Positions 8,963 to 24,160 of a stretch of 39,909 nucleotides of DNA are shown here, in pieces. The notes beneath the pieces are model-generated. The model worked only from the letters and a program-made list of their open reading frames with translations. It was not told the DNA's origin and searched no databases. The translations under genes and the position numbers were made by a program. Location of the stretch: IMG/VR virus record IMGVR_UViG_2706794690_000014; one strand, written 5' to 3'. Source of the stretch: a virus (lineage: Duplodnaviria; Heunggongvirae; Uroviricota; Caudoviricetes). Position 1 is the stretch's first letter. Each line of letters starts with the position of its first letter.

Positions 8963-9098
8963 GCAAATTGTTGAATGTCCCACCTGTGGAAATGAGGACC
9001 CGGAGTATCTGAAAGAGTGCCCACATTGTGGTGAGATAAAATGTAACCACTGCGATATGGGCGACGACACTGCATGTATAAATTGTGAGGATGAATAA
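8955..9098 (+). CDS. Small Cys-rich zinc-ribbon protein (47 aa)
   Basis: MDEQIVECPTCGNEDPEYLKECPHCGEIKCNHCDMGDDTACINCEDE: four Cys pairs. Below the ORF-track size cut-off; found by reading the gap. Confidence 0.4.
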   Translation: MDEQIVECPTCGNEDPEYLKECPHCGEIKCNHCDMGDDTACINCEDE

Positions 9099-9099
9099 T

Positions 9100-9387
9100 A
9101 TGGAAAAAGAAATCAAATTTGCGCCTAAATCTATCGACGAAGAACTGGCTAAAATCGGCATGCTTGAACGTATGCGGGACATTATCGAATATGCGATAAA
9201 AGAAAATCTTGCAGCCAGAGAAGCCCTTTTGATAATGGAGCGGGAGATTAACCTGATTAAGGATGCTGTATCTCTGGATAATAAAATAGCCCGCGAGGAA
9301 TACGTTCGCCGTAGGCTCGGTGTTGATGGTTCAGCAATTCTTACATCTGAACATTATGCAAAAATTTTTAATCTTTTTCAGCGGTAA
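9100..9387 (+). CDS. Hypothetical early protein
   Basis: ATG at 9100 with GAGGA 8 nt upstream (MEKEIKF...); predicted helical. Confidence 0.45.
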   Translation: MEKEIKFAPKSIDEELAKIGMLERMRDIIEYAIKENLAAREALLIMEREINLIKDAVSLDNKIAREEYVRRRLGVDGSAILTSEHYAKIFNLFQR

Positions 9388-9607
9388 TCCCCATACAGGC
9401 CCGGAGATTGTCGAAATGCCAGTCGGTATTAATATATGAGCCATCCTGGATATCTTCTGCATTTTCCGGGGTAGAGTTTTTTTGAGCGAGATTGATAATA
9501 TGTATTGCCTCCTCACGGGAAATCAGCCCCTTATCGAACAGGGTTACCATAAGATTTCCAGCCATTGTGAATGCGGCAACATCAAGTGCATTTTTTATAT
9601 CTGACAT
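9368..9607 (-). CDS. Hypothetical protein, reverse-oriented within the early region
   Basis: 79-aa minus-strand ORF with balanced composition and an AAGGA RBS 8 nt before its ATG; overlaps the 3' end of the 9100-9387 gene convergently. Confidence 0.45.
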   Translation of the reverse strand: MSDIKNALDVAAFTMAGNLMVTLFDKGLISREEAIHIINLAQKNSTPENAEDIQDGSYINTDWHFDNLRACMGITAEKD

Positions 9608-9635
9608 AGATTTTTCCTTTTATGTTAATTGACAT

Positions 9636-9664
9636 GGCGGTGCGGTAACACCGCCCATTTTTTA
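9636..9664 (+). terminator. Rho-independent terminator-like hairpin
   Basis: Stem ggcggtg/caccgcc with loop cggtaa, followed by a T6 run (9658-9663); lies just upstream of gemA. Confidence 0.5.
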
Positions 9665-9677
9665 TGGAGCCACGATA

Positions 9678-10190
9678 ATGAATCGCGCTTCCCTGATTAC
9701 CTTAATACATGTCGCAAAACGCGATCTACAGCTTGACCATGATACCTATACATCCGCGCTGCTGGCAGCCACCGGCAAATCCAGTTGCCGTGATATGTCA
9801 CCCGGTGAGTTATCCCGCGTGCTGGATGTTTTCAAAAAACGCGGTTTTAAAGTGCGTCAGAAGCCGGTTAACCGGGCCTTAAAACCGGGTACGGTGACCG
9901 CCAAAATTCGCGCCATCTGGAAAGTGATGCACCGGCAGGGATTTATCTCTGATGGCGGGGAAACGGCCCTTAACCGCTGGGTGAAATCGCAGACGGCCGC
10001 GCAGAACGACGGCGAAGGTGTGGCTAACTGGCAGTGGCTGGAGCAACAACCCGCGCTGGCCTCTGATGTGCTGGAGCGTCTCAAACGCTGGCACCGCCGC
10101 AAAATGCTGGCAGCCCTGGATATGTCGGAACGTGCAGTGATGAGTTATGAGCGTGTTTGCAGGCTGTATGAAAAATCATTCCCCCGTTAA
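9678..10190 (+). CDS. gemA: GemA-like regulatory protein (Mu gp16 family)
   Basis: 170-aa ORF with a LI.LIHVAKR..L.LD..TY N-terminus and RAIW motif typical of Mu gp16; located immediately before the Mor/C gene. Confidence 0.7.
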   Translation: MNRASLITLIHVAKRDLQLDHDTYTSALLAATGKSSCRDMSPGELSRVLDVFKKRGFKVRQKPVNRALKPGTVTAKIRAIWKVMHRQGFISDGGETALNRWVKSQTAAQNDGEGVANWQWLEQQPALASDVLERLKRWHRRKMLAALDMSERAVMSYERVCRLYEKSFPR

Positions 10191-10194
10191 CCCC

Positions 10195-10225
10195 AAATCC
10201 CGCCACAGCGCGGGATTTTTATTTT
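10195..10225 (+). terminator. Rho-independent terminator
   Basis: 9-bp stem aaatcccgc/gcgggattt with a 6-nt loop, followed by ttattttt; directly after the gemA stop. Confidence 0.6.
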
Positions 10226-10260
10226 AAACTTGCCCTGTGTAATGATGACCGGAGGCGGGT

Positions 10261-10683
10261 ATGGCTGAAACACAGATGAGCATGTTTGGTGACAGCGAAC
10301 AGCTGCACGCGCTGATTGACCGTCTGGATGATATTCCTGATGATGAGCTGAAAAAGAACTGGCCCGGCACGCTGCGGGACCTGGTTGATGTGATCAGTGC
10401 TGAACTGCACCGTCAGGGGATTGAACCTGCTCAGGCGGGAATGCTTGCCCGTAAGGTTGCAGCCGCACAGGCCGGGTACATGGGCGGGCGTGGTTATTAT
10501 CTCCCGGTCGGTGAATCCCTTTTCACCGAACTGCGCAATAATGAAATTTTTTCCCGCTGGAGCCAGGGCGAAAAAATTGAAACCCTGCGCCGCCACTACC
10601 AGATGTCAGAGACGCAGATTTACTCCGTTATCCGCAACCAGCGTCGCCTGCATCAGGAACGCACGCAGCCACGGCTTTTCTGA
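10261..10683 (+). CDS. Mor/C-family late transcription activator
   Basis: 140 aa with a C-terminal HTH (MSETQIYSVIRNQRR); sits between gemA and the lysis genes as Mor/C do in Mu. Cannot tell Mor from C. Confidence 0.7.
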   Translation: MAETQMSMFGDSEQLHALIDRLDDIPDDELKKNWPGTLRDLVDVISAELHRQGIEPAQAGMLARKVAAAQAGYMGGRGYYLPVGESLFTELRNNEIFSRWSQGEKIETLRRHYQMSETQIYSVIRNQRRLHQERTQPRLF

Positions 10684-10754
10684 TATTCCGCAAATCCTGC
10701 CCCCTTTTCCTCACGGTTACGCTGACTCAGAGAACACCATGAGACAGCGTAACA

Positions 10755-11255
10755 ATGCCAAAACTCCCCGCACCCCTGCGTAAAAAGCTGATTGCCCTTG
10801 TTCTGGCCGGAGCCGGGACGTTCACCATTGCCACGCACTACACCGGCTACTGGGAAGGGAAAGAAAACACCACGTACATTGATCCCACCGGCACCCCCAC
10901 CATCTGTTACGGCCATACCGGCCCGGATGTGAAACCGGGGATGACAAAAACTGATGAAGAGTGTCTGGAGCTGCTGGAAAAGGACATGAAATGGGCCTTT
11001 GCGGCTATCGATCGTCATGTTCAGGTGCCGCTTACCCGTGGTCAGACGGTGGCGCTGGCCTCCTGGATTTTCTGGGCCGGTGAAACGAACTTTCGCAACT
11101 CCACGCTCCTGCGCCTTATCAATGCCGGGCAGATGCCCGCGTCCTGTAAGCAGTATATCCGCTGGATTTATTCAAAGGGGGTAAAACTCCCCGGTCTTGA
11201 GGCCCGCCGTTCGGCGGATGAATGGTTATGTCGTTACGATTTGCCGAAAGTCTGA
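10755..11255 (+). CDS. lys: Endolysin (phage lysozyme) with N-terminal SAR-type signal anchor
   Basis: Catalytic E-x8-D-x5-T pattern (WEGKENTTYIDPTGTPTICYGHT); weakly hydrophobic Gly/Ala-rich N-terminus (LIALVLAGAGTFTIATHY). Confidence 0.8.
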   Translation: MPKLPAPLRKKLIALVLAGAGTFTIATHYTGYWEGKENTTYIDPTGTPTICYGHTGPDVKPGMTKTDEECLELLEKDMKWAFAAIDRHVQVPLTRGQTVALASWIFWAGETNFRNSTLLRLINAGQMPASCKQYIRWIYSKGVKLPGLEARRSADEWLCRYDLPKV

Positions 11256-11328
11256 ACCGCTTCTGGCGACCGCTCATGATTGCGCTGCTGTGTGCCGTTG
11301 TGCTGCTGCGGGGTGTGCTGTGTCTGCG

Positions 11329-11718
11329 GTGAACAATCCCTTACCGGCCCTGATTGCCGGAGGCTGTATGGCGGCGCTGGGGGTGATGAGCGTGCTGGCT
11401 GCCGTGGTATGGGGAATGCACCAGAAGACGCAGCGCCTTGAGGACAATAATCATGTGCTTGTGCGTGAACGGGACGAAGCCCGTCTGGTGCTGGCAAACC
11501 AGCAACGCACCCTGCAACTCATTTCACAAATCAGCAAGGCGGCCACGAATGAAAAACAGCAGAACATGCAGCACAGCGAGGAACAGCAGAGCATTGTCCG
11601 CCGGTCACTGGCAACGGTGCCTGCTGCCGCTGTGCCTGTGCCTGATGATGTGGCTGACCGGGTGCGGCGGGCCGTCTGTGAAATACGTGCCGGTGAAGCC
11701 GGTGCCGATCCCCGCTGA
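11329..11718 (+). CDS. Putative i-spanin (Rz-like)
   Basis: N-terminal TM segment (LPALIAGGCMAALGVMSVLAAVVW) followed by a charged, coiled-coil-like region. Start uncertain (GTG 11329, ATG ~11369, or ATG 11197). Confidence 0.55.
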   Translation: MNNPLPALIAGGCMAALGVMSVLAAVVWGMHQKTQRLEDNNHVLVRERDEARLVLANQQRTLQLISQISKAATNEKQQNMQHSEEQQSIVRRSLATVPAAAVPVPDDVADRVRRAVCEIRAGEAGADPR

Positions 11719-11920
11719 ATGGCTGGCTGACTGCCTGGTCCCTCCCGCGCCGCAGCCGTTCACGTTTGGTGCATCGGTCACTTACAACCTGCAACTGCTG
11801 GCGGTGATTAAAAACTGCAACGTGGACAAGGCCAGCATCCGCCGTCTGGAGACACAGCGACAGCATGAATTTACTGATATGGCCGGAACGACTGCTGTTC
11901 CGGCAGGAAAGACGAAGTAA
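11549..11920 (+). CDS. Putative o-spanin (Rz1-like lipoprotein), overlapping the i-spanin in another frame
   Basis: Lipobox-like LTGC followed by a Pro-rich mature region (PVKPVPIPAEW...PPAPQP); begins inside the i-spanin and extends past it. Start uncertain. Confidence 0.5.
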   Translation: MKNSRTCSTARNSRALSAGHWQRCLLPLCLCLMMWLTGCGGPSVKYVPVKPVPIPAEWLADCLVPPAPQPFTFGASVTYNLQLLAVIKNCNVDKASIRRLETQRQHEFTDMAGTTAVPAGKTK

Positions 11921-11930
11921 GGAAAAAGGT

Positions 11931-12158
11931 ATGGATGATTCAGATTGTGCTCAGGCAGTCATGGAGCGTGCAACAGAACGCGCCCTTTGTGACCGGCTGA
12001 CACGTAAGCGCCGGGTGGCGGAGACACCGGGCAGGCGTGTATGCGCGGACTGCGGGGGTGACATTCCGGCTGCCCGTCTGGTTGCCGTGCCGGATGCCAT
12101 CCGTTGTGTGAACTGCCAGAACATCATGGAGGCCGGTCATGTGGGTCAGCATCGTTAA
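11931..12158 (+). CDS. TraR/DksA-family C4 zinc-finger protein
   Basis: CADCGGDIP...CVNC C4 motif in a ~75-aa protein, as in phage/plasmid TraR-like proteins; ATG at 11931. Confidence 0.6.
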   Translation: MDDSDCAQAVMERATERALCDRLTRKRRVAETPGRRVCADCGGDIPAARLVAVPDAIRCVNCQNIMEAGHVGQHR

Positions 12159-12450
12159 AGATTATGTCGTGCCGATCCTGTCGGCAACGGCCACAGCCGG
12201 GGGGATCTTCATGGCGCTGATGCGCAAAACCTTTGTCCCCCGCGAGGCCTTTGAAAAACTCTCCGACCGGGTTGAGCGGGTGGAGAGCCGGATTTCCGGC
12301 CTGCCCACGCAGCAGGAGGTGAACAGACTCAATATCGAAATCACCACCCTGCGCGGTGAGCTTAAGGCCACCAATGCCACCCTGAAATCCGTCTCCCATC
12401 AGAACGAACTGCTGCTGGAGCAGGCTGTAAGGAAAAAACACAATGAGTGA
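12139..12450 (+). CDS. Small membrane protein (TM plus coiled coil); possible lysis accessory
   Basis: N-terminal hydrophobic segment (VVPILSATATAGGIFMALM) followed by a coiled-coil-like region; located between the lysis and packaging genes. Confidence 0.45.
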   Translation: MWVSIVKDYVVPILSATATAGGIFMALMRKTFVPREAFEKLSDRVERVESRISGLPTQQEVNRLNIEITTLRGELKATNATLKSVSHQNELLLEQAVRKKHNE

Positions 12451-12733
12451 TTTCATTACTGAAGATCAGCGTCTTGTCATTCTGCGGTCGCTGGCGGATT
12501 ACAACGGCGAACTGGGCGAATCCGTGCTTCAGGACTGCCTGGATGATTACGGTCACCGCGTGTCCCGCGACACCGTTCATACCCACATTGCCTGGCTTGC
12601 CGAGCAGGGACTGGTGCGTAAGCGCACGCTTGTTAACGGTTATTTCATCGCTGAACTGACCGGCCGGGGTCAGGATGTGGCGGAAGGCCGCGCCACCGTT
12701 CCGGGTGTGAAGAAACCACGCGCAAGGGGGTAA
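12443..12733 (+). CDS. Hypothetical late protein
   Basis: 96-aa ORF coupled to its neighbours; no recognisable domain. Confidence 0.4.
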   Translation: MSDFITEDQRLVILRSLADYNGELGESVLQDCLDDYGHRVSRDTVHTHIAWLAEQGLVRKRTLVNGYFIAELTGRGQDVAEGRATVPGVKKPRARG

Positions 12734-12735
12734 CG

Positions 12736-13317
12736 ATGGATAAGCCAGCGCGTGGCCGTGTACGCAAGGTGGATTTGCTCCCCGACAGCATCCGTAAGCC
12801 GCTGCTGGAAATGCTGCGTGAAAAACGTCTGACGCAGGTCCAGATCCGCGAGGAAATCAACCGTCTGATCCGTGAAGCAGGTCTGCCGGAAGAGCAGCAG
12901 CTCTCACCGGCGGCCATCAGCCGGGAAGCCTCCCGTAATGAGCTGATTGCCCGTAATCTGCGTGATTTACGCGAGCAGACAAAAGCCATGATGGCCGAAC
13001 TGGGGGATAAGCCGACCGGTGAAACCACGGCACTGATTCTGGAGATGTCCCGTGCCCTGATGTACCGCCGTCTGCGTGCCGCCACCGAATCCCTGAACAG
13101 CGACAGCGATGTGGATATGCGCCTTATTAAGGACATCCTCCTGTCGGCACAGCGTGCAGAAAGTGCCGCCGAGCGCAGCATTAAGCGTGAAAAAGAAATC
13201 CGGGCCGCATTTGCTGAAGAGATGGCGAATGCGGTCACCGATGAGTTGCGCGGCGTGGATGGCATGAGCGAGCAGATCGAATTCCGTATCAGGCAGATGC
13301 TGCTGGGTAAGGCGTAG
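12736..13317 (+). CDS. Putative terminase small subunit / DNA-binding protein (Mu gp27-like)
   Basis: 193-aa charged helical protein two genes upstream of the large terminase, as in Mu. Confidence 0.5.
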   Translation: MDKPARGRVRKVDLLPDSIRKPLLEMLREKRLTQVQIREEINRLIREAGLPEEQQLSPAAISREASRNELIARNLRDLREQTKAMMAELGDKPTGETTALILEMSRALMYRRLRAATESLNSDSDVDMRLIKDILLSAQRAESAAERSIKREKEIRAAFAEEMANAVTDELRGVDGMSEQIEFRIRQMLLGKA

Positions 13318-13327
13318 GAGGTGAATC

Positions 13328-13576
13328 ATGGCAACAGATAACCGCTCACTGATGAGCAGTGCCCATCAGAAAGCATTCAGTCTTGCAACACAGTTACCTC
13401 CTGAAACCATAAAGGTATGTCGTGAGTTGACTGAACTCAGCATTGCCGGGGAAATATCCCTGGAACAACTGCATTCGCTGCTGGCAGAGGCTGCCACTGA
13501 TGAGTTGAGCGGCGTGGACGTGATGACTGAAGAGCTTGAGTCCCGAATCAAAAGCATTCTGACAGGTAAAGCATGA
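13328..13576 (+). CDS. Small protein paralogous to the C-terminus of the preceding gene
   Basis: C-terminal ~25 aa (DELSGVDVMTEELESRIKSILTGKA) parallel the upstream protein's C-terminus (DELRGVDGMSEQIEFRIRQMLLGKA); DNA is also similar. Confidence 0.45.
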   Translation: MATDNRSLMSSAHQKAFSLATQLPPETIKVCRELTELSIAGEISLEQLHSLLAEAATDELSGVDVMTEELESRIKSILTGKA

Positions 13577-15240
13577 TGAACAAAGCCAGAGAAACGTCGC
13601 CTTCACTGATGCAAATGACGCCTCCCCGCAAAATTGATCTGTCAGGTGAAAAAGCCCTGCTGGGCGTGGATGTGCCGGACAGCCTTGATTTGCCCGGTGA
13701 TATGCCGGTGTTTCTGGATTATCAGGCCCGCTGGTTTGCAGATGAAAGTCAGGTCTGCATCGCGGAGAAATCCCGCCGCACCGGTCTTACCTGGGCGGAA
13801 GCCGGGCGTAACGTCATTACTGCTGCAAAACCGAAGCGTCGTGGTGGCCGCAATGTGTTTTATGTGGGATCAAAGCAGGAGATGGCGCTGGAATATATTT
13901 CTGCCTGCGCGCTGTTCTCCCGTGCCTTTAACCAGCTGGCAGATGCTGATGTGTATGAGCAGACATTCTGGGATCGGGATAAAAAAGAAGAAATTTTGAC
14001 CTACATGATCCGCTTTCCGAACAGTGGATTCAAAATTCAGGCATTGTCTTCCCGTCCGTCAAACCTGCGCGGCCTTCAGGGGGATGTGGTGATTGATGAA
14101 GCCGCGTTCCACGAGTCACTGGATGAGCTTCTCAAGGCGGCAATGGCGCTCACTATGTGGGGCGCGCGCGTGCGTATTATCTCCACGCATAACGGCGTCG
14201 ATAATCTGTTTAATCAGTACATTCAGGAAGCCCGCGAGGGGCGCAAGGATTACAGCGTCCACCGCATAACCCTGGATGATGCCATTGCGGACGGGCTGTA
14301 CCGTCGTATCTGTTACGTCACCGATCAGGAATGGTCACCGGAAAGCGAGCAGAAATGGCGTGATGATCTCTACAAAAACGCCCCGACCCGTGAGGATGCC
14401 GACGAGGAATACGGCTGTATCCCGAAAAAATCCGGCGGTGCCTATATCCCCCACGCGCTTATTGAAATGGCGATGATCCGCGACATCCCGATTCTGACGT
14501 TTGAAGCCCCGGACAACTTCATCAGCCGTGCCGCATGGCTGCGTGAATCGGAAGTTTTAACCTGGTGTGAAGAACATTTAAAACCGCTTTTAGAGAAATT
14601 AAATCCCCGTTCCCGCTTCAGCTTCGGGGAAGACTTTGCCCGCACCGGTGACCTGTCCTGCTTTGTGCTGCTGGAAATCACCGAATCCCTGGCAAAGCGC
14701 GAGGTGTTTCGCGTGGAGCTGCGCAACCTGCCGTATGCCCAGCAGGAACAGGTGATGATGTACATCCTGACCCGCGTTCCGGCGCTGGTCGGTGCGGCGT
14801 TCGACGCCACCGGTAACGGCGGCTATCTGGCAGAGGCCGCACTGCTGGCCTTTGGCCCGGACATCATCGACTGCGTGATGTTGTCGCCGAAGTGGTACGG
14901 CGAGTGGATGCCAAAACTGAAAGCCGAGTTTGAAGATCAGAATATCCTCGTCGCCCGCCATCAGACCACGCTTGATGATTTGCGCCATGTGAAGGTAGTG
15001 AATGGTATCCCGCAAATCGACAAGGGGCGCACGAAGGACCAGAACGCAACGGCTGCGAACGCCCGCCGCCATGGTGATTTTGCCGTGGCGCTCTGTATGG
15101 CAAACCGGGCGTCATACATGGAGGGCTTCATCCTGGATGAATCAGCCTGTCAGGCGCTACAGGAGCGGTCGCGGGCAATGGAGGGCGGTTATCGTGATGA
15201 CGATGAGGCATATCATGAATTTGATCGGGGGGGCTGGTAG
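13573..15240 (+). CDS. Terminase large subunit (Mu gp28-like)
   Basis: 555-aa ORF directly upstream of the portal; size, position and ATPase/nuclease-like composition fit TerL. Confidence 0.8.
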   Translation: MMNKARETSPSLMQMTPPRKIDLSGEKALLGVDVPDSLDLPGDMPVFLDYQARWFADESQVCIAEKSRRTGLTWAEAGRNVITAAKPKRRGGRNVFYVGSKQEMALEYISACALFSRAFNQLADADVYEQTFWDRDKKEEILTYMIRFPNSGFKIQALSSRPSNLRGLQGDVVIDEAAFHESLDELLKAAMALTMWGARVRIISTHNGVDNLFNQYIQEAREGRKDYSVHRITLDDAIADGLYRRICYVTDQEWSPESEQKWRDDLYKNAPTREDADEEYGCIPKKSGGAYIPHALIEMAMIRDIPILTFEAPDNFISRAAWLRESEVLTWCEEHLKPLLEKLNPRSRFSFGEDFARTGDLSCFVLLEITESLAKREVFRVELRNLPYAQQEQVMMYILTRVPALVGAAFDATGNGGYLAEAALLAFGPDIIDCVMLSPKWYGEWMPKLKAEFEDQNILVARHQTTLDDLRHVKVVNGIPQIDKGRTKDQNATAANARRHGDFAVALCMANRASYMEGFILDESACQALQERSRAMEGGYRDDDEAYHEFDRGGW

Positions 15241-16829
15241 TGGGACGCATCATTGATACTGACGGAAAACCTTTCTCCTTTGACCCGGAGATGCAGAGTG
15301 CCGCGCTGGATATTCCGCAGATTGCCAGCCGTTATATTGAACATCCGGCTTCGGGTATCACCCCGAACCGGGCGGCGCAGTGCCTTCGCGGGGCTGAACG
15401 TGGCGATCTGATTGCCCAGTCCGATCTGGCCGCTGATATTGAAGAAAAGGACACCCACCTTTTTGCGGAGCTGGGCAAGCGACGTCTTGCCATTCAGGGG
15501 GTGCCATGGAGTATTGAGCCGCCACCGAACGCCAGCGCGAATGAGAAAAAGGACGCGGAAATGCTCGACGAATATCTGCATTCCGCAGACTGGTTTGATG
15601 CCATGCTGTTTGACGCCACGGATGCCATCCTGAAGGGCTATTCCTGCATGGAAATTGAGCACGGGATGCTCGGTAAAATGCACATCATCCGCGCCATCCG
15701 CTGGCGTGACAGCGGGCATTTCTGCCTTAACCCGGATGATTTGAGCGAACTGCGGCTGCGTGACGGCAGCCATGCCGGGGTGGCGTTTCAGCCCTTTGGC
15801 TGGATAGTGCATCAGTCGCGTTCACGCACCGGCTACGGTGGTGCGACGGGGCTTGTCAGAACGCTTATCTGGCCGTTCATTTTCAAAAACTATTCCGTGC
15901 GCGATCTGGCGGAATTTCTGGAGGTGTACGGCCTGCCAATGAAGGTCGGGAAATACCCGTCCGGGGCAACACCGGAGCAGAAAAGTGCCCTGATGCGGGC
16001 GGTGATGGATATCGGGCGACGTACAGGCGGGATCATCCCGGCCGGGATGTCGCTGGAGTTTCAGGCGGCAGCGAACGGTCAGGCCGATCCGTTTGAAACC
16101 ATGATTTCGTGGGGTGAGCGTTCCATCTCCAAAGCAATACTCGGCGGCACGCTGACCACAGAAGCCGGAGACAAAGGCGCGCGCTCGCTGGGTGAGGTGC
16201 ATAACGAGGTGCGCCGGGAAATCAGGGATTCTGATTTACGCCAGCTGGCTGCAACCCTGAACCGCGATCTGGTGTATCCGCTGTATGCCCTGAACACCGC
16301 CCACGCCATTGATATCCGTCGCCTGCCGCGTATCTGTTTCCAGACCAAAGAACCGGGGGATATCACCAAAATAGCCAGTGCGGTGATGCAACTCAGTGCG
16401 GGGATGGATATTCCTGATCCCTGGGTACGGGATCAGACCGGTATTCCACAGCCCACGCCCGGTGAAGCCATATTCCGTGTCCGTCAGAGCAGTAATGAAC
16501 CGGCCATGCCTGACAGGGAAACGCTACCGGAAAAACAGGAAAAGACAGAACAGACGGCGCTTTCAGCCCGACTGCCGGAAGCGAAAAACACGCCGCGTGA
16601 TGAACTGGACGACATGGGGGACGCGGTGCCTGCCCGCCGCTTACAGGAGGCCATCGATCCGGTGCTGGAGCCGGTCATTGATGTCATCAGAACGCGGGGG
16701 CTGGCGGAGGCACTGGCAGACCTGCCTGCCCTTTACCGTGAAATGGATGATTCCCGCCTGATGACGCTGCTCAGTGATGCCATGTTTGCTGCGGAAATGA
16801 AGGGGATGCTGGATGGCTCAGGGGATTGA
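15240..16829 (+). CDS. Portal protein (Mu gp29-like)
   Basis: 529-aa ORF between terminase and the F-like head gene. Confidence 0.8.
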   Translation: MGRIIDTDGKPFSFDPEMQSAALDIPQIASRYIEHPASGITPNRAAQCLRGAERGDLIAQSDLAADIEEKDTHLFAELGKRRLAIQGVPWSIEPPPNASANEKKDAEMLDEYLHSADWFDAMLFDATDAILKGYSCMEIEHGMLGKMHIIRAIRWRDSGHFCLNPDDLSELRLRDGSHAGVAFQPFGWIVHQSRSRTGYGGATGLVRTLIWPFIFKNYSVRDLAEFLEVYGLPMKVGKYPSGATPEQKSALMRAVMDIGRRTGGIIPAGMSLEFQAAANGQADPFETMISWGERSISKAILGGTLTTEAGDKGARSLGEVHNEVRREIRDSDLRQLAATLNRDLVYPLYALNTAHAIDIRRLPRICFQTKEPGDITKIASAVMQLSAGMDIPDPWVRDQTGIPQPTPGEAIFRVRQSSNEPAMPDRETLPEKQEKTEQTALSARLPEAKNTPRDELDDMGDAVPARRLQEAIDPVLEPVIDVIRTRGLAEALADLPALYREMDDSRLMTLLSDAMFAAEMKGMLDGSGD

Positions 16830-18144
16830 TTTAGGTTATGCCGCCACGCTTCCCTCAAAAGAGACGGTGGCATACTTCCGCGCCAAAGGGGCGCATATCA
16901 GCTGGAACTGGTTCGAAACAGACGCGGATGTTCATGCCCGCTCATTCACGGCAGCAAAAACGGCACGGCTGGATGTGGTAACCACATTACAGGCCGAAGT
17001 GCAGCGGGCCATTGATGAGGGGATTTCACAGAAAGAATTTATCCGCACACTGACGCCACGCCTGCAAAAGCTGGGATGGTGGGGAAAGCAGATTGTGGTG
17101 GACAGCGACGGTAACGCGGAAGAAGTGCAGCAGGGCAGTCCCCGTCGTCTGGCGCTGATTTACAACGTGAACACCCGTGTGGCTTACAATGCCGGGCGTT
17201 ACACGCAGATGATGAACAACACGGACACGCATCCGTTCTGGCAGTATGTGGCGGTCATGGACAGCCGTACCCGCCCGTCGCATTCCGCCCTTAACGGTCT
17301 GGTATTCCGCTATGACGATCCGTTCTGGAAAACACACTACCCGCCCAATGGCTGGAACTGCCGCTGCCGTGTGCGGCCATTGTCTCAGGCCCGTCTGGAT
17401 GCAATGGGGTTATCCGTTTCATCCGGTGAGGATCATCTCTCCACCCGCAATGTTGAGGCTGGCGTGGATAAACAGACCGGAGAAGTCAGAGAAATGCCGG
17501 TGACCACATATTCAGATGGCGCCAGAACCATGACACCGGATGTGGGCTGGTCATATAACCCCGGCTCGGCAGCGTTCGGCACAGACCAGGCGCTGATCCG
17601 CAAACTGATCGAGGTGAAAAGCCCGGCGTTACGGGAAATGGTGGTTCAGGAGATGAACAACAGCCCGGAGCGGCAGCTGGCGTTCCGCATCTGGGCAAAA
17701 AACATCATGCAGACCCGGCGAGGTGGTAACGATATCCGCACGCTGGGCTTTATGACTGAAAGCATTGCGCAGGCAGTGGAAAGCCGGACGGGAACGCCAC
17801 CGGCCCGCCTGCTGGCGATGAGCGGTAAAAATGTGCTCCATGCGGACAGTGTGAAACATCAGAATGACGGCATCGCTCTGACGCCGGAGGACTTCGGGCG
17901 CTTACCGGCAATGCTGGCAAGGCCAAAAGCGGTACTGTGGGACAAACGGCACAACAATCTGATGTATATCGTGGAAAATCAGGATGGCAGTGTGCAGATT
18001 GCCGTTAATGCACCGTACAGTCTGAAACGTCAGCCCGACAAACTGGATGTGATTGTGAATGCTTACCGGGTTATCAATATGGATAAGCTGAAATCGGATA
18101 TCCGGGGCGGAATGCTTGAGGTGCTGGAAGGACAAATTGATTAA
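16813..18144 (+). CDS. Head morphogenesis protein (Mu F / gp30-like)
   Basis: Conserved core DSRTRPSHSALNG...NGWNCRCRV typical of the phage Mu F family. Confidence 0.8.
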   Translation: MAQGIDLGYAATLPSKETVAYFRAKGAHISWNWFETDADVHARSFTAAKTARLDVVTTLQAEVQRAIDEGISQKEFIRTLTPRLQKLGWWGKQIVVDSDGNAEEVQQGSPRRLALIYNVNTRVAYNAGRYTQMMNNTDTHPFWQYVAVMDSRTRPSHSALNGLVFRYDDPFWKTHYPPNGWNCRCRVRPLSQARLDAMGLSVSSGEDHLSTRNVEAGVDKQTGEVREMPVTTYSDGARTMTPDVGWSYNPGSAAFGTDQALIRKLIEVKSPALREMVVQEMNNSPERQLAFRIWAKNIMQTRRGGNDIRTLGFMTESIAQAVESRTGTPPARLLAMSGKNVLHADSVKHQNDGIALTPEDFGRLPAMLARPKAVLWDKRHNNLMYIVENQDGSVQIAVNAPYSLKRQPDKLDVIVNAYRVINMDKLKSDIRGGMLEVLEGQID

Positions 18145-18145
18145 C

Positions 18146-18225
18146 GGTCAGTGGCGGGGGTCGAACCCGCATACATGATCCACCCGGAGGCAGGCACCGA
18201 CTTTACCAGTTAAGCGTACACTGAC
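18146..18225 (-). ncRNA. tRNA-like element (possible degenerate tRNA)
   Basis: On the minus strand: 7-bp acceptor stem, U8, D-loop-like TAACTGGTAA, and a perfect T-arm (GCGGG-TTCGACC-CCCGC). No convincing anticodon stem could be folded by eye. Confidence 0.25.
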
Positions 18226-18265
18226 CGCCTGTTTATTTTATATTCATCCTTTATGCGGAGGCAAT

Positions 18266-18739
18266 ATGTCATCCATTGATGCAGCTGTCGTTGTTGACGT
18301 TACGCGTCTCCAGCGAGTGTTTGCCCGGCTTCAGTTTGTGGGCGGCGGAAAAGACCTGGCCCGCAGTGTGGCGGCGAGTCTTCTGTCATCGTCAGAAATG
18401 GCGTTTGAGCAGGAAAAAGAGCCGGATGGTGAACGCTGGCATGACTGGTCAGATCCTTACCGTGAGTGGCGTACCCGTAAGGGATACACGCCCGGCAAAA
18501 TCCTGACGCTGAACGGCGATCTGGCCCGCCGCCTGACCACGGATTATGGCGATACCTGGGCGCTGATTGGATCAAATGAACCTTATGCAGCCATTCATCA
18601 GTGGGGTGGCCTGCCTGGTATGCCACCGGGACCGGCGGCCATTGGCGCACGTCCGTATATGGGCTTTGATCAGGTGGCAGAACAGGAGATCATGGACGAA
18701 ATCAGAAAACGCTTTAAAAAGGCCACAGAAACGCCGTAA
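18266..18739 (+). CDS. Virion morphogenesis protein (Mu G-like)
   Basis: 157-aa ORF between the F-like and I-like genes. Confidence 0.7.
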   Translation: MSSIDAAVVVDVTRLQRVFARLQFVGGGKDLARSVAASLLSSSEMAFEQEKEPDGERWHDWSDPYREWRTRKGYTPGKILTLNGDLARRLTTDYGDTWALIGSNEPYAAIHQWGGLPGMPPGPAAIGARPYMGFDQVAEQEIMDEIRKRFKKATETP

Positions 18740-18916
18740 TGGTTTAAGGTATGCAAACGTATTACCTTACCCCCTTCAGGCGCGTGTCGTGATTTTCTAA
18801 CCTGTATTTAACGGGCTTTAAAATCTGCGTGAAGCGCCTTTCTCATTCCCCCCCTGTCAGCACTTTCTGAAGTCCCGCAAAACCAGCCCCAAAAATACCC
18901 GGCTTATGCTGCCGGT

Positions 18917-20050
18917 ATGAAGACAGAAAATCACCCAAAAGACGCAAATCGCCCCTCCGGTTTAGCCGTGCTTTCAGCTTCGCTGACTGCATCCGGCGAC
19001 GGATGGTGTCAGTTACTGCCAGCCGGTCGGGTAAAGGCCCGTGACGGTCGCCCGGAAAAACCGACTGAAGGCTGGCTGATTAACGAATCCGCCTGTAACC
19101 GGATGAAAGCCGGGCTTTCCGCCCTGCATCAGCCGTTACTGATTGATTATGACCATCACTCCGTGAATGCGCAGAAAAACGGATTCAAGGCTATTGCTGC
19201 AGGATGGGTTAAGCCGGAAAACATCGAATGGCGTGAGGGTCAGGGGATTTTCATTAAACCTGAATGGACACCACAGGCACAAAAACATATTGATGACCGT
19301 GAATATGCCTATCTGTCTGCATATATGCATTATTTCGCTGACACCGGGGAACCCTACCTGTTGCGCATGGCTTCCCTGACGAATGATCCGGGTATTACGG
19401 GTATGAACCCTGTCGCGGCACTCAGTGCTGATGATCTCTATGTCGTTTCCCCTTCTCAGGAGCAATCCCCCATGAATGAGCAATTACGCCAGTTGCTGAC
19501 GGCGCTCGGTCTGACCGTGGCTGACGGTGACGAATTTACACCGGAACTGGGCACGGCGGCGCTGTCTGCCCTTACCGGGATCAAAACCCGTGCGGATGCG
19601 CACGACACCCTGAAAACGCAGGTTGCCAGCCTGTCGGCAGAACTGGAAACCGCAAAAGGCACACCAACTGGCGGCACTATTGATCTGACGAAATATGTGC
19701 CCGTTGAGACGTATAACGCCCTGCGTACCGAATATGCCGCGCTGTCGGCACAACACGGCAGCACCACGCTGGAGCAGTTGCTGGATAAGGCCGAGTCCGA
19801 AGGACGCATTTTCAAAAGCGAACGCGGATACATGGAAGGACTCGGACAACAGATTGGCGTCGCGGCACTTTCTGCACAGCTTGACGCCCGCCAGCCGGTT
19901 GCGGCTCTGACCACTCTTCAGACCGACACCGTAACCGTGCCGGATAAAAAGACCGCCACCGCTGTGCTGTCGGCTGAAGATATCGCCGCCGCACGTCTGT
20001 TGGGTAAAACCGAAGCCGAGTTCCTGAAAATGAAAGAGGAAATGCAATAA
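18917..20050 (+). CDS. Head maturation protease / scaffold (Mu I-like)
   Basis: 377-aa ORF immediately upstream of the major head gene; Ala-rich helical C-terminal half consistent with a scaffold domain. Confidence 0.75.
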   Translation: MKTENHPKDANRPSGLAVLSASLTASGDGWCQLLPAGRVKARDGRPEKPTEGWLINESACNRMKAGLSALHQPLLIDYDHHSVNAQKNGFKAIAAGWVKPENIEWREGQGIFIKPEWTPQAQKHIDDREYAYLSAYMHYFADTGEPYLLRMASLTNDPGITGMNPVAALSADDLYVVSPSQEQSPMNEQLRQLLTALGLTVADGDEFTPELGTAALSALTGIKTRADAHDTLKTQVASLSAELETAKGTPTGGTIDLTKYVPVETYNALRTEYAALSAQHGSTTLEQLLDKAESEGRIFKSERGYMEGLGQQIGVAALSAQLDARQPVAALTTLQTDTVTVPDKKTATAVLSAEDIAAARLLGKTEAEFLKMKEEMQ

Positions 20051-20997
20051 TGCCTACCCCGATTACACCGGCGATGATCACCGCCCTGATGACGGGCTAC
20101 CGTTCTGATTTTCAGGCCGGGATGTCCATGGCTCCGTCGCAGTACCAGAAAATTGCGATGACCGTGCCGTCCACCTCGAAATCCAACACCTACGGCTGGC
20201 TGGGGCAGTTCCCGCAGTTCCGTGAGTGGATCGGCTCCCGCGTCATCGAGAAGATGAAAGCCTATGGCTACGCCATCGTGAACAAAACCTTTGAAGGCAC
20301 CGTTGCCATTAGCCGCGATGACTTTGAAGACGACAATCTCGGCATCTACTCCCCGTTATTCCAGGAAATGGGTCGTGCCGCTGCGGCACAACCGGATGAA
20401 CTGGTCTTTGCTGCACTGCGTGATGGTCTGAATGCGGCCTGCTATGACGGCCAGAACTTCTTTGATACCGAACACCCTGTTTACCCCAAAGTGGATGGCT
20501 CCGGTGATGCACAGATGGTCAGCAATATGTTTGTGGCAAAAACCGGCTCTGTCGGTGCACAGGCGGATTACAGCGGCCCGGCCTGGTATCTGCTTGACTG
20601 CTCCCGCGCGGTAAAACCGCTGATTTATCAGGATCGCCGCAAAGCCGAACTGGTTGCCCAGACAAAAGTCGATGAAGGCCGTGCGTTTACTGATAACGAG
20701 TTTGTGTTCGGTGCTTCCGCCCGTCGCAATGTGGGCTACGGCTTCTGGCAGATGGCCTACATGATGCAGTCACCGCTGACGCTGGATGCGCTGTGGCACG
20801 GCTGGTCAGCCATGCGTGACTTTAAGGCTGACGGTGGCCGCAAACTCGGCATCAAACCCACCCATATTGTTGTCCCCACCTCGCTGGAAAAACAGGCGGT
20901 GCAGCTGCTGGAGCGCGAGCTGTTCGCAGACGGTAACGCCACAGTCTCTAACGAGATGAAGGGCAAGCTGGAGCTGGTTGTCGCGGATTATCTGTAA
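20050..20997 (+). CDS. Major head subunit (Mu T-like)
   Basis: 315-aa ORF coupled to the I-like gene by ATAATG overlap. Confidence 0.8.
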   Translation: MPTPITPAMITALMTGYRSDFQAGMSMAPSQYQKIAMTVPSTSKSNTYGWLGQFPQFREWIGSRVIEKMKAYGYAIVNKTFEGTVAISRDDFEDDNLGIYSPLFQEMGRAAAAQPDELVFAALRDGLNAACYDGQNFFDTEHPVYPKVDGSGDAQMVSNMFVAKTGSVGAQADYSGPAWYLLDCSRAVKPLIYQDRRKAELVAQTKVDEGRAFTDNEFVFGASARRNVGYGFWQMAYMMQSPLTLDALWHGWSAMRDFKADGGRKLGIKPTHIVVPTSLEKQAVQLLERELFADGNATVSNEMKGKLELVVADYL

Positions 20998-21040
20998 ACG
21001 GTGAGCCGGGCTTACGGCCCGGCCCCTGCGGAGGGCAAAT

Positions 21041-21400
21041 ATGAATGAACATCACACTGTGGCAGCAACAGATGATTCAGGCCTTCAGGTCAGTGGTGAC
21101 AGTCCTGTCACGGTACTGGCAGAAGTGCGTTGCAGTCGTACGCATTTTCGTCGTGCGGGGTTCCTGTTCATGCGGGGACGCCAGCAGGTTGACGTCACCC
21201 CGGAGCAGCTTGCCCGACTGGAAGCGGAGCCATGCCTCACTGTACGAATACTACAGACGCCTGGTGATGATGCGGGAGCCGTGGCGGGTGTGGTTCATGC
21301 AGAGACCGGTGCAGATTTAGCCGAAGCCGAAACCGTACAGGATGCTCCCCGGAAAAAGACCGGCAATAACGCCAGACAGGCGAAAAAGGCGCGCGCATGA
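21041..21400 (+). CDS. Hypothetical head-associated protein
   Basis: 119-aa ORF coupled to the next gene by ATGA overlap; preferred over the alternative-frame ORF 21045-21320. Confidence 0.5.
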   Translation: MNEHHTVAATDDSGLQVSGDSPVTVLAEVRCSRTHFRRAGFLFMRGRQQVDVTPEQLARLEAEPCLTVRILQTPGDDAGAVAGVVHAETGADLAEAETVQDAPRKKTGNNARQAKKARA

Positions 21401-21816
21401 ATTACGCCACCGAAACCGATATGCGGGCACGTTACCGCGAGGATTTGCTCAGGCCATTACTGGCCGTGCCCCGTTCGGATGAACCGGACACGCGCAAGCT
21501 GAACCGGGCACTGACGGACGCGTCTGCCCTTATCGACAGCTATCTGTCTTCCCGTTACACGCTGCCGCTGGCGGTGGTTCCGGCGGTCCTTGTTCAGCAT
21601 TGCTGCACGATTGCCTTTTATTACCTGTGCGATCAGCGGGCATCCGATCAGGCGCGTGACCGTTACCGTGAGGCGCTGGCCTGGCTGAAAGATGTCATGA
21701 ACGGTAACGTGCCGGTCGGCGTGGATACAGACGGTGCGGCCCCTGAATCCGGGGATTTACCGCAGGTGCAGTCTGATGCGGCGGTGTTCGGGCGCAACCA
21801 GAAGGGCTTTATATGA
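21397..21816 (+). CDS. Head-tail joining protein (Mu gp36-like)
   Basis: 139-aa ORF between head and tail modules; assigned from recalled Mu gene order. Confidence 0.6.
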   Translation: MNYATETDMRARYREDLLRPLLAVPRSDEPDTRKLNRALTDASALIDSYLSSRYTLPLAVVPAVLVQHCCTIAFYYLCDQRASDQARDRYREALAWLKDVMNGNVPVGVDTDGAAPESGDLPQVQSDAAVFGRNQKGFI

Positions 21817-22376
21817 TTACGGAAACCGAGCAGGCGTACATCGCCCGTATCCGTGAGTATTTCGGGAATGAACTGGTGTCTGTTGACACACATCCCGGCG
21901 ACTGGAGCGACAGCGTACTGCGCACCATGCTGATTAACGCCCCGGCTATCTATGTTGCCTGGCTGGGTGCCGGTGAAGGGCGTACCCGTGGGCGTCTGGT
22001 CAGTCACTGGGTGTTCTACGTCATCGGCGACATGCTCAATGGCCGTGAGGTCAGCCGTCCCGGGCTTTATCAGATTGTGGCCCGCCTGATTACCGTGCTG
22101 GACGGCTTCAGAGCAGAAAAAACCTCACCGCTTTACTTTGAAAAGGCGGTCAACGGTTACACCGAAACGCAGGCAGGCAGCGGTGCCGTGATGTACGCCC
22201 TGTATTTCTCATGCGAGGAAATGATCGACCCGCTGACGGATATCAGCTCGCTGGATGATTTCCTGCGCCATTACGAAACCTTTACCGAACCGGAAGGCAC
22301 GCCGGAATTTAAGGCACACATCCGTCTGCCTGGTGCAACTGCCGCCGGTGAAAACGCCGGACTGTCAGAGGAATAA
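21813..22376 (+). CDS. Mu gp37-like virion protein
   Basis: 187-aa ORF coupled to the upstream gene; position as in Mu. Confidence 0.6.
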   Translation: MITETEQAYIARIREYFGNELVSVDTHPGDWSDSVLRTMLINAPAIYVAWLGAGEGRTRGRLVSHWVFYVIGDMLNGREVSRPGLYQIVARLITVLDGFRAEKTSPLYFEKAVNGYTETQAGSGAVMYALYFSCEEMIDPLTDISSLDDFLRHYETFTEPEGTPEFKAHIRLPGATAAGENAGLSEE

Positions 22377-22379
22377 CAG

Positions 22380-22658
22380 ATGACAACCATTTTTATTAAA
22401 CCTGCGCCGGGATGCCTGATCCGCGATCCCGACACGATGACTCCGCTCTCTCAGGACGGGGAAGAGAAACCCTTCACTCCGTTCTGGTGCCGCCGTCTTA
22501 ATGATGGCGACGTCATTGTGGTGGATAAAACGGCGGAGCCTGCCCCGGCTGCCACAACTGCTAATACCGGCGCGGCGGCAAAACCAGCGGGAGCGGTAGC
22601 AGAAAAAACTGCGGCGGTGGCTGAAAAAACCGCAGCATCAGATAAGGGGACGTCCTGA
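22380..22658 (+). CDS. Mu gp38-like small protein with Ala/Lys-rich C-terminal repeats
   Basis: 92-aa ORF ending in AVAEKTAAVAEKTAA repeats; stop overlaps the sheath start. Confidence 0.55.
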   Translation: MTTIFIKPAPGCLIRDPDTMTPLSQDGEEKPFTPFWCRRLNDGDVIVVDKTAEPAPAATTANTGAAAKPAGAVAEKTAAVAEKTAASDKGTS

Positions 22659-24160
22659 TGATTAACTTTGATTATATCGGCGATAACAATCGCATTCCGC
22701 TGGTACAGATTGAAATCAATAATTCAATGGCCGTGACCGGCACTCCACCACAGCGTCAGGCGGTACTGTTGTTTGGTCAGGCTGCAATGAAAGACACTAC
22801 CATTCAGGGGCGCGGTCAGCTTGATGTACCAGTACGTATTACCCGAGCTTCACAAGCAAGAGAACTCTGGGGGCGAGGTTCCATGATTGCACTGATGGTA
22901 GAGGAATTTATCGCCATTAACCCTGACACAGAGTTATATGCCATTGCACAGGGGGCTGGAACAGGTCAGTCCAGGGCATGCGTGATGAATATCATTGGAA
23001 CAGCATTGGCAGACGGGGTGTTAAGTGTTTACATCGGCGGTCGCCGTTACCTCCTGCCCGTCAGTAAGGGGAAAAAAGGTAAAGAGCTTGTGGAAGAGCT
23101 GGCTAAGGTCATTAACGCTGACACTGATGCGCCATTCACTGCTATCGCAGCTGAAGTCAGTGGTGATAATGCTGAAGGACTTAAAGGCAGCATGGGGGTT
23201 AACGCCCGCTTTATCGGTGAATGCTCAGCTCATGATTTACGGGTGAACTATTATGACGGTGAAACTACACCGGCCGGTCTTACGCTGGAGCTCGTCGCGC
23301 CAACACAGAAGGCAACAAACCCCGATATCACCCGTAGCGTCTCAGGGATGGGGAATCGTCAGTACAACTACATCGTCATGCCCTATAAGGATGCGGCAAA
23401 TCTCAAAATTCTGGCGGATGAACTGCTGAAACGCTGGGGACCGGTAAAAATGTCGGACGGTATGGTCTGGATGGCGCATACCGGCACCTTCGGTACGGCA
23501 ACCAGTTTTGGTGAATCCCGTAATGACTTCCTGTTTACCTGCACTTCTATTCCTAAAGCACCAGAGCCGGATTATGTCTGGGCTGCCTCCATTTGTGCGG
23601 TCTGTGCGCCCTCCCTGTCAACGGATCCGGCCCGACCATTACAGACACTGGCGCTGCCTGCCCGTATGGCACCTGAAGCACCGGATCGTCTGACGCGGGA
23701 AGAGCGAAACAGCCTGCTTTATACCGGCATGTCCACGGTGACCGTCGCGGCCGCGGATGTGGTGCAGATTGAACGTCAGGTGACGATGTACCGTCAGAAT
23801 GCATACGGCGAAATCGATCCCAGCTATCTGGATGTGGAAACCATCTACACCCTGTCATATCTGCGTTATTCCCTGCGCACCTTTATCACGCAGCGTTTTC
23901 CGCGCCATAAACTGGCTGATGACGGGACGCCCGTTCGTGCCGGTCAGAATATCGTGACACCGGAGATCATGAAACTTCAGTTAATTTCGCTGGGGGAAGA
24001 ATGGGTGGATCTGGGACTGGTCGAAAATCTGGACACCTTTAAAAAGAATCTGCTCGTGGAGCGCAACACAAAAGACCGTAACCGTCTGGATGTGATGTGT
24101 ACACCGGATCTGGTTAACCAGTTCCGCTTCATGGCCGCGCAGATCCGTTTCATTTTGTGA
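22658..24160 (+). CDS. Tail sheath protein (Mu L-like)
   Basis: 500-aa ORF directly upstream of the tail tube gene. Confidence 0.85.
   Translation: MINFDYIGDNNRIPLVQIEINNSMAVTGTPPQRQAVLLFGQAAMKDTTIQGRGQLDVPVRITRASQARELWGRGSMIALMVEEFIAINPDTELYAIAQGAGTGQSRACVMNIIGTALADGVLSVYIGGRRYLLPVSKGKKGKELVEELAKVINADTDAPFTAIAAEVSGDNAEGLKGSMGVNARFIGECSAHDLRVNYYDGETTPAGLTLELVAPTQKATNPDITRSVSGMGNRQYNYIVMPYKDAANLKILADELLKRWGPVKMSDGMVWMAHTGTFGTATSFGESRNDFLFTCTSIPKAPEPDYVWAASICAVCAPSLSTDPARPLQTLALPARMAPEAPDRLTREERNSLLYTGMSTVTVAAADVVQIERQVTMYRQNAYGEIDPSYLDVETIYTLSYLRYSLRTFITQRFPRHKLADDGTPVRAGQNIVTPEIMKLQLISLGEEWVDLGLVENLDTFKKNLLVERNTKDRNRLDVMCTPDLVNQFRFMAAQIRFIL

Follow-up and report, generated by a model that had tools for sequence, protein, structure and literature searches.

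A number of RNAs carry parts of a transfer RNA (tRNA) and do not decode. The tRNA-like domain of transfer-messenger RNA (tmRNA, SsrA) has the G3:U70 alanine identity and a free CCA end, lacks a D stem and is accompanied by a large messenger RNA (mRNA)-like domain and pseudoknots. The "tRNA-Other" of Bacillus cereus, the viral tRNAs (vtRNAs) of murid herpesvirus 68 and the stable RNAs C and D of phage T4 are tRNA-derived and have non-decoding roles; some of these are encoded by viruses, some are annotated only as tRNA-Other, and they show a preserved anticodon-type loop or processing to a CCA end. Phage tRNA genes are now seen partly as countermeasures to tRNA-cutting host nucleases, and the inserted phage genes known as morons normally code for protein and have a clear terminator. 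YrlA and the other bacterial Y RNAs, which also occur in phages, are non-decoding tRNA mimics with a D arm, a T arm and an acceptor-like stem; they are partners of Ro60/Rsr and are believed to offer proteins the shape of a tRNA (PMC4201824). YrlA is located beside rsr and contains the Ro-binding motif GNCGAAN0-1G; both of its termini, 5′ and 3′, belong to the Ro-binding stem, and its acceptor-like stem is closed (PMC4201824). Here we analyse a tRNA-like element on the minus strand of the IMG/VR virus record IMGVR_UViG_2706794690_000014, a stretch of 39,909 nucleotides (nt) in total, referred to below as the window, which contains a complete Mu-like prophage. The element almost wholly occupies the spacer between the Mu F-like and Mu G-like genes.

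The combined data make it very probable that the element is an autonomous gene for an RNA of ~85–95 nt, which descends from a tRNA, forms an accessory insert (a "moron") between F and G, and is transcribed leftward from its own sigma-70 promoter. The full explanation that we prefer, in which this gene identity is joined to a role of the RNA as a trans-acting tRNA decoy, falls a little short of an even chance. The alternatives that were weighed are, in order of decreasing weight, a cis-acting antisense insulator, a processing handle, a relic of a tRNA gene, a DNA-level element, and a true tRNA or terminator.

Read from 18225 to 18146 on the minus strand, the element has the sequence GUCAGUG-UAC-GCUU-AACUGGUA-AAGU-CGGUGCCUGCCUCCGGGUGGAUCAUGUAU-GCGGG-UUCGACC-CCCGC-CACUGAC-C (Table 1). 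The acceptor helix GUCAGUG/CACUGAC comprises seven perfect pairs, formed by 18225–18219 with 18153–18147, and two further pairs extend it to a closing stem of 9 base pairs (bp; positions -2 to 7 with 66 to 74). The D arm has a 4-bp stem and carries G18 and G19, and the T arm, GCGGG-UUCGACC-CCCGC, spans 18170–18154. The nucleotides that shape the tRNA L, U8, A14, G18-G19 and those of the T-loop, are thus retained together with the acceptor, D and T helices, while acceptor stem and D stem are joined by the three nucleotides U-A-C, compared with two nucleotides in ordinary tRNAs. A first-pass annotation of this DNA, made from the letters and their open reading frames (ORFs), had described a perfect minus-strand acceptor stem, a D-loop-like segment with the conserved GG and a perfect T arm with a TTCGA-type loop; all three hold, with 7 of 7 acceptor pairs formed. 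Its further statement that no anticodon stem could be folded stands in part: the arm is indeed non-canonical, but it is present as a hairpin, CUGCC-UCCG-GGUGG (18193–18180), which in the predicted fold is set on a GUG/CAU base helix and capped by a UCCG tetraloop of the UNCG class (18188–18185).

Since this arm ends in a 4-nt UNCG tetraloop, the element has no anticodon. An unpaired discriminator base is likewise missing, because the closing stem continues through pairs -1:73 and -2:74, and CCA is not encoded, position 73 being followed by GUUAAU. With an anticodon-less, capped arm and both termini paired, the RNA cannot read a codon and, in its encoded form, offers no acceptor end. Two aminoacylation identities were considered and rejected: histidine identity (G-1:C73), as pair -1:73 becomes A:U or U:A elsewhere in the family, -2:74 also pairs and CCA is absent, and alanine identity, as position 3:70 is C:G.

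The Rfam tRNA model (RF00005) matches exactly 18146–18225 on the minus strand over model positions 1–71, with 31.0 bits (E = 1.3e-4) against a gathering cut-off of 29 bits; the match required permissive filters on the region 17950–18450, and cmscan passes over the anticodon arm as a 24-nt local insertion. A scan of the whole window with default filters at gathering thresholds gives no match, because the speed filters discard it, and ARAGORN, which needs an anticodon arm and therefore misses the element, reports neither a tRNA nor a tmRNA in the window and likewise nothing in the relatives. No Rfam family other than tRNA matches the element, and there is no Y-RNA match at E values up to 10. A covariance model of the family itself (R1) scores 90.2 bits over 18227–18145, the sole copy in the window, where the next match reaches 8.8 bits. 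In the 100%-identical locus of Escherichia coli 600029 the RefSeq/PGAP annotation places a "tRNA-OTHER" over the same 80 nt. These results confirm that the observation of a tRNA-like element is real. For annotators they mean that ARAGORN and default Rfam scans overlook the family, and that tRNAscan-based isotype calls on its members are spurious. Databases already flag the element as tRNA-OTHER, or wrongly as tRNA-Tyr, and tRNA-derived mimic RNAs are a known kind of molecule; full-text searches of the literature turned up no description of this particular RNA. Of the papers brought up, one that mentions prophage Sp18 has no bearing on it, and one on AcrIIIA1 deals with host tRNA fragments.

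Homologous elements were pooled from a search with the G protein, which is independent of the RNA, and from DNA-pattern scans of viral, genome and metagenome collections, giving 42 distinct variants. The D-arm pattern scan of genome contigs produced mostly chance matches in Acinetobacter coding DNA and yielded the Edwardsiella, Citrobacter, Shewanella and Rheinheimera copies; the T-arm pattern scan of viral contigs found mainly genuine tRNAs, tmRNA ends and phage attachment (att) fragments. Covariation was evaluated in a gapless alignment of 32 variants that covers the cloverleaf core and a four-pair extension of the terminal stem and excludes the variable arm. In this alignment 88.6% of the cells are paired, compared with 71.2% after shuffling and 41–56% in slid registers. 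The covariation score is 0.524, against 0.179 for shuffled alignments (0 of 500 attain the observed value) and 0.07–0.21 for slid registers, and two-sided changes occur in 15 of 20 pairs, against 11.2 and 7–12, respectively. All seven acceptor pairs covary. Pair -1:73 is present in 28 of the 32 variants (GC 15, AU 5, UA 5, CG 1) and pair -2:74 in 24 (AU 9, CG 8, others), the terminal stem reaches 11–14 pairs in some family members, and CCA directly follows position 73 in only 1 of the 42 variants.

The first-pass annotation had named a search with tRNAscan-SE or Infernal and the conservation in related prophages among the checks on its proposal, and a missing covariance-model match together with missing conservation of the paired positions as the outcome that would speak against it. 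Both came out the opposite way, the former with 31.0 bits against a cut-off of 29, the latter with strong covariation across the relatives. Among the three options that it had left side by side, the tRNA-like structure is supported by the covariance-model match, the conserved position and covariation in every helix.

The middle region, which replaces the anticodon arm, folds as a hairpin in all 32 distinct cases, with 4–12 bp overall and 6–12 bp in the anticodon-less Mu-type members. Tetraloops are present in 19 of these regions, seven of which are UNCG loops (UCCG or UUCG) on five different stems, CUGCC/GGUGG (window), ACCC/GGGU, GCC/GGC, CGG/CCG and CGC/GCG; the remaining loops have 3 nt or 10–18 nt. 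Within the subgroup of the window the distal stem shows compensatory changes (CUGCC/GGUGG, CAGCC/GGCUG, CCGCG/CGUGG and CUGUC/GACAG). A 7-nt loop is found only in L210, L226 and possibly L036, leaving 29 of the 32 distinct arms without one. The U-A-C linker is present in all family members, including every variant retrieved via the G protein alone; it belonged to the DNA search patterns. The same linker occurs in genuine tRNAs that ARAGORN calls, namely a tRNA-Lys encoded on a chromosome (L210) and a "stop" tRNA with the anticodon UUA (L226, L232), and thus marks ancestry and not loss of function. The latter tRNA belongs to a metagenomic phage tRNA cluster, which in L232 contains 17 tRNAs; it shares the D arm of the family as well as the linker, and its anticodon would read the stop codon UAA, which hints at stop-codon suppression or recoding in the L226/L232 phage.

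It is hardly credible that the element is a genuine, decoding tRNA whose anticodon arm is unusual, or else an intrinsic terminator acting at F–G on the plus strand. The former is suggested by the PGAP label "tRNA-Tyr" on a related unit in NZ_CP075652, but this call is spurious because the unit folds as AGCCUG-GUAC-CAGGCU, a hairpin with a 4-nt loop in which the "anticodon" lies within the GUAC tetraloop; the loop of the window element is UCCG, its 3′ end is not free and CCA is not encoded. The latter could draw on a T-rich run that follows the closing stem on the plus strand of the window. This run is, however, absent from relatives such as L186, which retains the minus-strand -10 box, and a search for intrinsic terminators found none on either strand in 17600–18800 and none at the element in 9000–22000. 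The T-run is not conserved and the -10 box is; the conserved feature is therefore the promoter and not a plus-strand terminator, and the chance hairpin acting as a terminator, another of the earlier options, finds no support.

The strand under selection and the rate of change can be read from the family directly. On the minus-strand reading the helices contain 30 G:U pairs and 5 A.C pairs, an A.C pair on one strand being a G:U pair on the other, and UNCG loops are meaningful only in a minus-strand RNA. Among 26 close relatives the nucleotide diversity (pi) of the element is 0.020, four-fold lower than the 0.086–0.087 of third codon positions in F and G, whose first positions have values of 0.013–0.023; purifying selection on the element is thus comparable to that on first and second codon positions. 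Together, the strand and diversity results rule out a neutral pseudogene, a purely DNA-level element and a plus-strand element.

The same data bear on two broader alternatives. We regard it as very unlikely that the element is what remains of a phage tRNA gene, whether as a decaying pseudogene or as a hitch-hiker without function. The missing anticodon, the absence of an ARAGORN call, an Rfam score barely above the cut-off and the circulation of the T-loop mutations A58C and G57A would all suit such a relic; selection at the level of first and second codon positions, compensatory changes in all helices, a replaced arm that is always a hairpin with stable loops, a conserved promoter and a site retained while F and G diverge to 32–54% identity would not. 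The first-pass option of a decayed tRNA is contradicted by the low diversity and the compensatory changes, as well as by the maintenance of the replaced arm as a hairpin. Highly improbable, too, is an element acting as DNA, either as a conserved linker for the exchange of head-gene modules or as an att site for integrases that use tRNA 3′ halves. Many att fragments of phages and 3′ ends of tRNAs have the T-arm and acceptor sequence of the element (GGGTTCGACCCCCGCCAC) in common with it, and the neighbouring genes are mosaic in some loci, e.g. L245. Against this stand the RNA- and strand-specific signatures (the G:U excess and the UNCG loops), helices that covary instead of conserving sequence, and the finding of no interrupted copy among ~250 loci.

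A predicted sigma-70 promoter, with a spacer of 18 nt between the -35 and -10 hexamers, is the sole minus-strand promoter-like site near the element. Its -35 hexamer TTGCCT overlaps the Shine-Dalgarno sequence GGAGG of G on the opposite strand, and the predicted start, 18229–18227, lies 2–4 nt ahead of the closing stem. As the promoter abuts the 5′ end, the RNA would be almost leaderless. In nearly every anticodon-less, non-array member a near-consensus -10 hexamer ends 7–14 nt upstream of +1, the exceptions being L036 and the L234 type; the hexamers are TAAAAT, TATAAT, TATACT, TATGCT, TATATT, TACAAT and TAAGCT, often preceded by TGn. [quoted passage not shown] Downstream of the element in the F–G context no conserved minus-strand ORF is found; a 77-aa ORF with a TTG start, considered as a hidden downstream gene, occurs in the window lineage only and is not conserved. 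Among the copies seen, a classical terminator tail follows only a chromosomal member in a Rheinheimera metagenome-assembled genome (L157, 7319–7401, minus strand), which has an 11-bp closing stem followed by TTGTTTTTTTATT and precedes the gene of a copA-type P-type ATPase by 76 nt.

The family is widespread and its presence varies. The F–G region was found in 230 of 5,426 complete E. coli genomes (~4%), where it is usually annotated as tRNA-OTHER; the carriers include many O157 and other Shiga-toxin strains. The G-protein search returned 35 viral loci, among which a homologous element occupies the same place in the same orientation in every Mu-like relative down to 61% G identity, except L035 (65% G identity), in which F and G abut; it is also missing from three distant loci. 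The family occurs at the F–G position in Mu-like phages from E. coli to Shewanella, with hosts including Citrobacter braakii, Edwardsiella anguillarum and Shewanella, and keeps this location although some neighbours are only 32–54% identical to the window F and G proteins. The element is absent from phage Mu, in which F and G overlap, from D108 and SfMu, in which the G match falls under both annotated genes, indicating the same overlap, and from Shewanella phage MuM16-1, in which the F–G gap measures 9 nt; searched with model R1, Mu, MuM16-1 and L035 yield no copy. Because phage Mu and some relatives do without it, the element is accessory. The blastn matches of the element include no E. coli host tRNA, and it therefore did not arise by recent copying of a tRNA gene of the host.

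Family members also occur in other surroundings (Table 1), among them a few chromosomal sites. Some form arrays, in which two or three units with differing middle hairpins follow a Mor homologue at a distance of ~300 bp; such arrays were found in contigs of gut metagenomes and in an E. coli island that adjoins a truncated mdtP gene. Within them the units have the same orientation as their neighbours and are separated by ...ATCGCTTTTTT spacers. A run of GTGAAA-type repeats precedes the array of L253, at about 975–1050. In L212, L219 and L222 a T-type major capsid gene directly follows the Mor homologue and the element lies downstream, antisense to T; this compact Mu-related element (9894–14313 in L212) may be satellite-like. 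In L212 the RNA gene is followed, 217 nt downstream and in the same orientation, by a DUF2971 gene with a match to PDC-S31, a candidate defence family of PADLOC. In the Rheinheimera-type genomes L207 and L180 a family member is found on the trailer side of a type I-E-like CRISPR array with the repeat CTGTTCCCCGTAAGCACGGGGCTAAACCG, ~190 nt past the end of the array; it has its own TATGCT -10 box and is convergent with the array transcript. The varied orientations and contexts favour a trans-acting RNA over a regulator of the F–G junction.

Two alternatives place the function in the surrounding transcript. In a cis-acting antisense insulator, what counts would be the leftward promoter together with the structured RNA: convergent transcription into F, and complementarity of the RNA to the F–G junction and the ribosome-binding region of G, would lower the leaky or late expression of G and of the genes that follow it. 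The antisense position relative to the late operon, at F–G as well as after T, the overlap of the -35 hexamer with the Shine-Dalgarno sequence of G, and the lack of a terminator, by which run-on into F becomes possible, are in keeping with such a role. We nevertheless consider it unlikely, as the RNA is co-oriented with its neighbours in the post-Mor arrays, upstream of copA and beside a CRISPR array, as selection preserves tRNA tertiary nucleotides and tetraloops which antisense action does not need, and as Mu manages without the element. A processing or stability module, in which the tRNA-like fold would be the 5′ handle (an RNase P, Z or E site, or a protective cap) of a longer leftward transcript with its functional part downstream (an antisense RNA, or else an accessory gene in elements other than this one), is to be rated as decidedly improbable. 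It would account for the same-orientation candidate defence gene in L212, for the resemblance of the arrays to co-transcribed, processed units and for the window copy having no terminator, but the F–G context offers no conserved downstream ORF, and a closing stem of at least nine pairs with a promoter at the 5′ end suggests that the mature RNA equals the primary transcript.

Under the explanation that we prefer, in which the RNA acts in trans as a tRNA decoy, the RNA would be made constitutively from the prophage in the lysogen. We infer this expression because the promoter is of a constitutive type and points in the direction of the repressor gene, against lytic transcription; the binding target and the benefit described below are likewise inferred. 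The paired 5′ end should stabilise the RNA, which would accumulate and could not be translated. It might then serve as a tRNA look-alike by means of its elbow and acceptor-T helix, and occupy or divert a protein that recognises the tRNA shape, as a decoy, sponge or competitor in a phage–host or phage–phage conflict. Candidate targets would be an enzyme that processes or modifies tRNAs, or a nuclease or toxin with which a defence or competitor system attacks them, and their diversion could benefit the phage or the lysogen. Taken by itself, this decoy mechanism is tentative, and we judge it possible but doubtful. More doubtful still is the wider proposal that Mu-like phages and Mor-carrying relatives share an undescribed class of promoter-bearing, anticodon-less, uncharged tRNA mimics that act as decoys or sponges in tRNA conflicts. 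Such mimics might blunt tRNA-targeting immune nucleases or toxins, or tune a tRNA-sensing pathway of lysogeny control, with the variable capped arm setting the specificity. Keeping the tRNA body while dropping the anticodon and the charging end would then represent a tactic of another sort, in which a tRNA is mimicked but nothing is decoded. Besides being common and clearly defined, the family is easy to delete, and its function is readily testable.

Several observations weigh against this explanation, or against the gene identity on which it builds. The folding energy of the element is at the level of shuffled sequences (z = -0.81, or -0.02 with flanks), and the case for it rests on the covariance model and the comparative data, not on thermodynamics. 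The promoter is a predicted motif, not a mapped transcription start, and no clear intrinsic terminator follows the element in the window to set the 3′ end of the RNA. The D-loop and T-loop motifs formed part of the search patterns, which accounts for some of their apparent invariance across all variants; the same motifs are seen in the set retrieved through the G protein, which is free of this bias. Among the 26 close relatives, four carry the T-loop variant A58C (18161) and two G57A (18162). A 98.9%-identical variant without a PGAP tRNA annotation, which may correspond to the A58C change, is common in O157:H7 genomes; an A58C T-loop in a common O157 lineage could reflect relaxed constraint there. 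Finally, no protein gene consistently co-occurs with the element across its contexts, and no binding partner is indicated.

The earlier placement of the element between head morphogenesis genes is borne out by its neighbours, as PF04233 identifies one of them as Mu F and PF05069 the other as Mu G. [quoted passage not shown] The coordinates of the RNA gene, the prophage genes and the members in other contexts are collected in Table 1.

Table 1. Parts of the tRNA-like RNA gene, its prophage setting, and family members or relatives in other loci.
Feature	Position	Strand	Remark
Whole tRNA-like RNA gene	18145-18227	-	closing stem, U-A-C linker, D arm, anticodon-less hairpin, T arm
Predicted sigma-70 promoter of RNA gene	18235-18264	-	-35 TTGCCT 18264-18259, -10 TAAAAT 18240-18235; consensus scan
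Closing stem, 5′ strand CG+GUCAGUG (positions -2, -1, 1-7)	18219-18227	-	pairs with 18145-18153
Linker U-A-C between acceptor and D stems	18216-18218	-	cmscan inserts one base after position 9
D arm GCUU-AACUGGUA-AAGU	18200-18215	-	with A14, G18, G19, A21
Anticodon-arm replacement and variable region, CG-GUG-C-CUGCC-UCCG-GGUGG-AU-CAU-GUAU	18171-18199	-	predicted fold
T arm GCGGG-UUCGACC-CCCGC	18154-18170	-	T54-Psi55-C56-R57-A58 consensus
Closing stem, 3′ strand CACUGAC+CG (positions 66-74)	18145-18153	-	
Helix-turn-helix (HTH) repressor	935-1480	-	
MuA transposase	1899-3986	+	
MuB	4060-5001	+	
Mor-type late activator	10261-10683	+	
Large ORF at terminase (TerL) position	13573-15240	+	without Pfam match
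Portal	15240-16829	+	
Mu F-like head morphogenesis gene	16813-18144	+	PF04233, PF18819; left neighbour, convergent with RNA gene
Mu G-like virion morphogenesis gene	18266-18739	+	PF05069; right neighbour, divergent from RNA gene
Protease I	18917-20050	+	
Major head protein T	20050-20997	+	
Tail sheath	22658-24160	+	
Mom	38300-39232	+	
Tandem array, L003	3996-4295	-	
Tandem array, L253	1133-1433	+	
Tandem arrays, L244, L247, L251			
CRISPR-adjacent member, L207	5376-5451	+	repeats from 5641
CRISPR-adjacent member, L180	3251-3326	-	array ending near 3063
UUA-anticodon tRNA, L226	1979-2053	-	metagenomic phage tRNA cluster
UUA-anticodon tRNA, L232	3742-3816	-	metagenomic phage tRNA cluster

Some further features of the prophage were observed. 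The 177-nt spacer between G and I (18740–18916) is the positional counterpart of the phage Mu region that has an annotated strong gyrase cut site after G, and presumably also contains the late promoter for I. The ORF at 9678–10190, directly upstream of the Mor-type activator gene, is flanked by two strong terminator-like hairpins with T-runs on the plus strand (9636–9655 and 10195–10218), where early transcription may give way to middle transcription. IS66-family ORFs (HTH_Tnp_1, TnpB_IS66) are found at the left edge of the window (1–701), and between the tail-fibre region and mom there is a gene at 34952–37006, likely an accessory gene, whose product of 684 aa contains a SASA (sialate O-acetylesterase-like) and a DUF6645 domain.

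Compared with the systems described above, the element combines features of several. With a canonical tRNA (RF00005) it has in common the 7-bp acceptor stem, the D arm with G18 and G19, the T arm with its UUCGA loop, the L-shape nucleotides and a score above the cut-off. It differs from such a tRNA in the replacement of the 5-bp stem and 7-nt loop of the anticodon arm by a UCCG tetraloop on a longer stem, in the lack of a free discriminator and an encoded CCA, and in the promoter at its 5′ end. Like tmRNA it is a tRNA mimic without an anticodon, but it has C3:G70, a full D stem, a length of ~85 nt and no mRNA-like domain. The tRNA function of SsrA was reportedly found by Ranquet et al. in 2001 to influence Mu prophage repression; the element could not simply replace SsrA, because it lacks the G3:U70 alanine identity. 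Of the pseudo-tRNAs and vtRNAs of B. cereus, murid herpesvirus 68 and T4, we know of none with a 9-bp closing stem and a tetraloop-capped arm, and to our knowledge their sequences are unrelated to the element. Like a phage moron, it is inserted between genes that overlap in Mu, has its own predicted promoter and varies in presence among relatives; unlike a normal moron it encodes only an RNA and has no evident terminator. With YrlA it shares the nature of a non-decoding tRNA mimic that occurs in phages. No rsr gene lies near the element in the window, its neighbours being Mu F and G, and its topology is the reverse of that of YrlA: the ends of the RNA form the acceptor-like stem, and it is the other arm that is capped.

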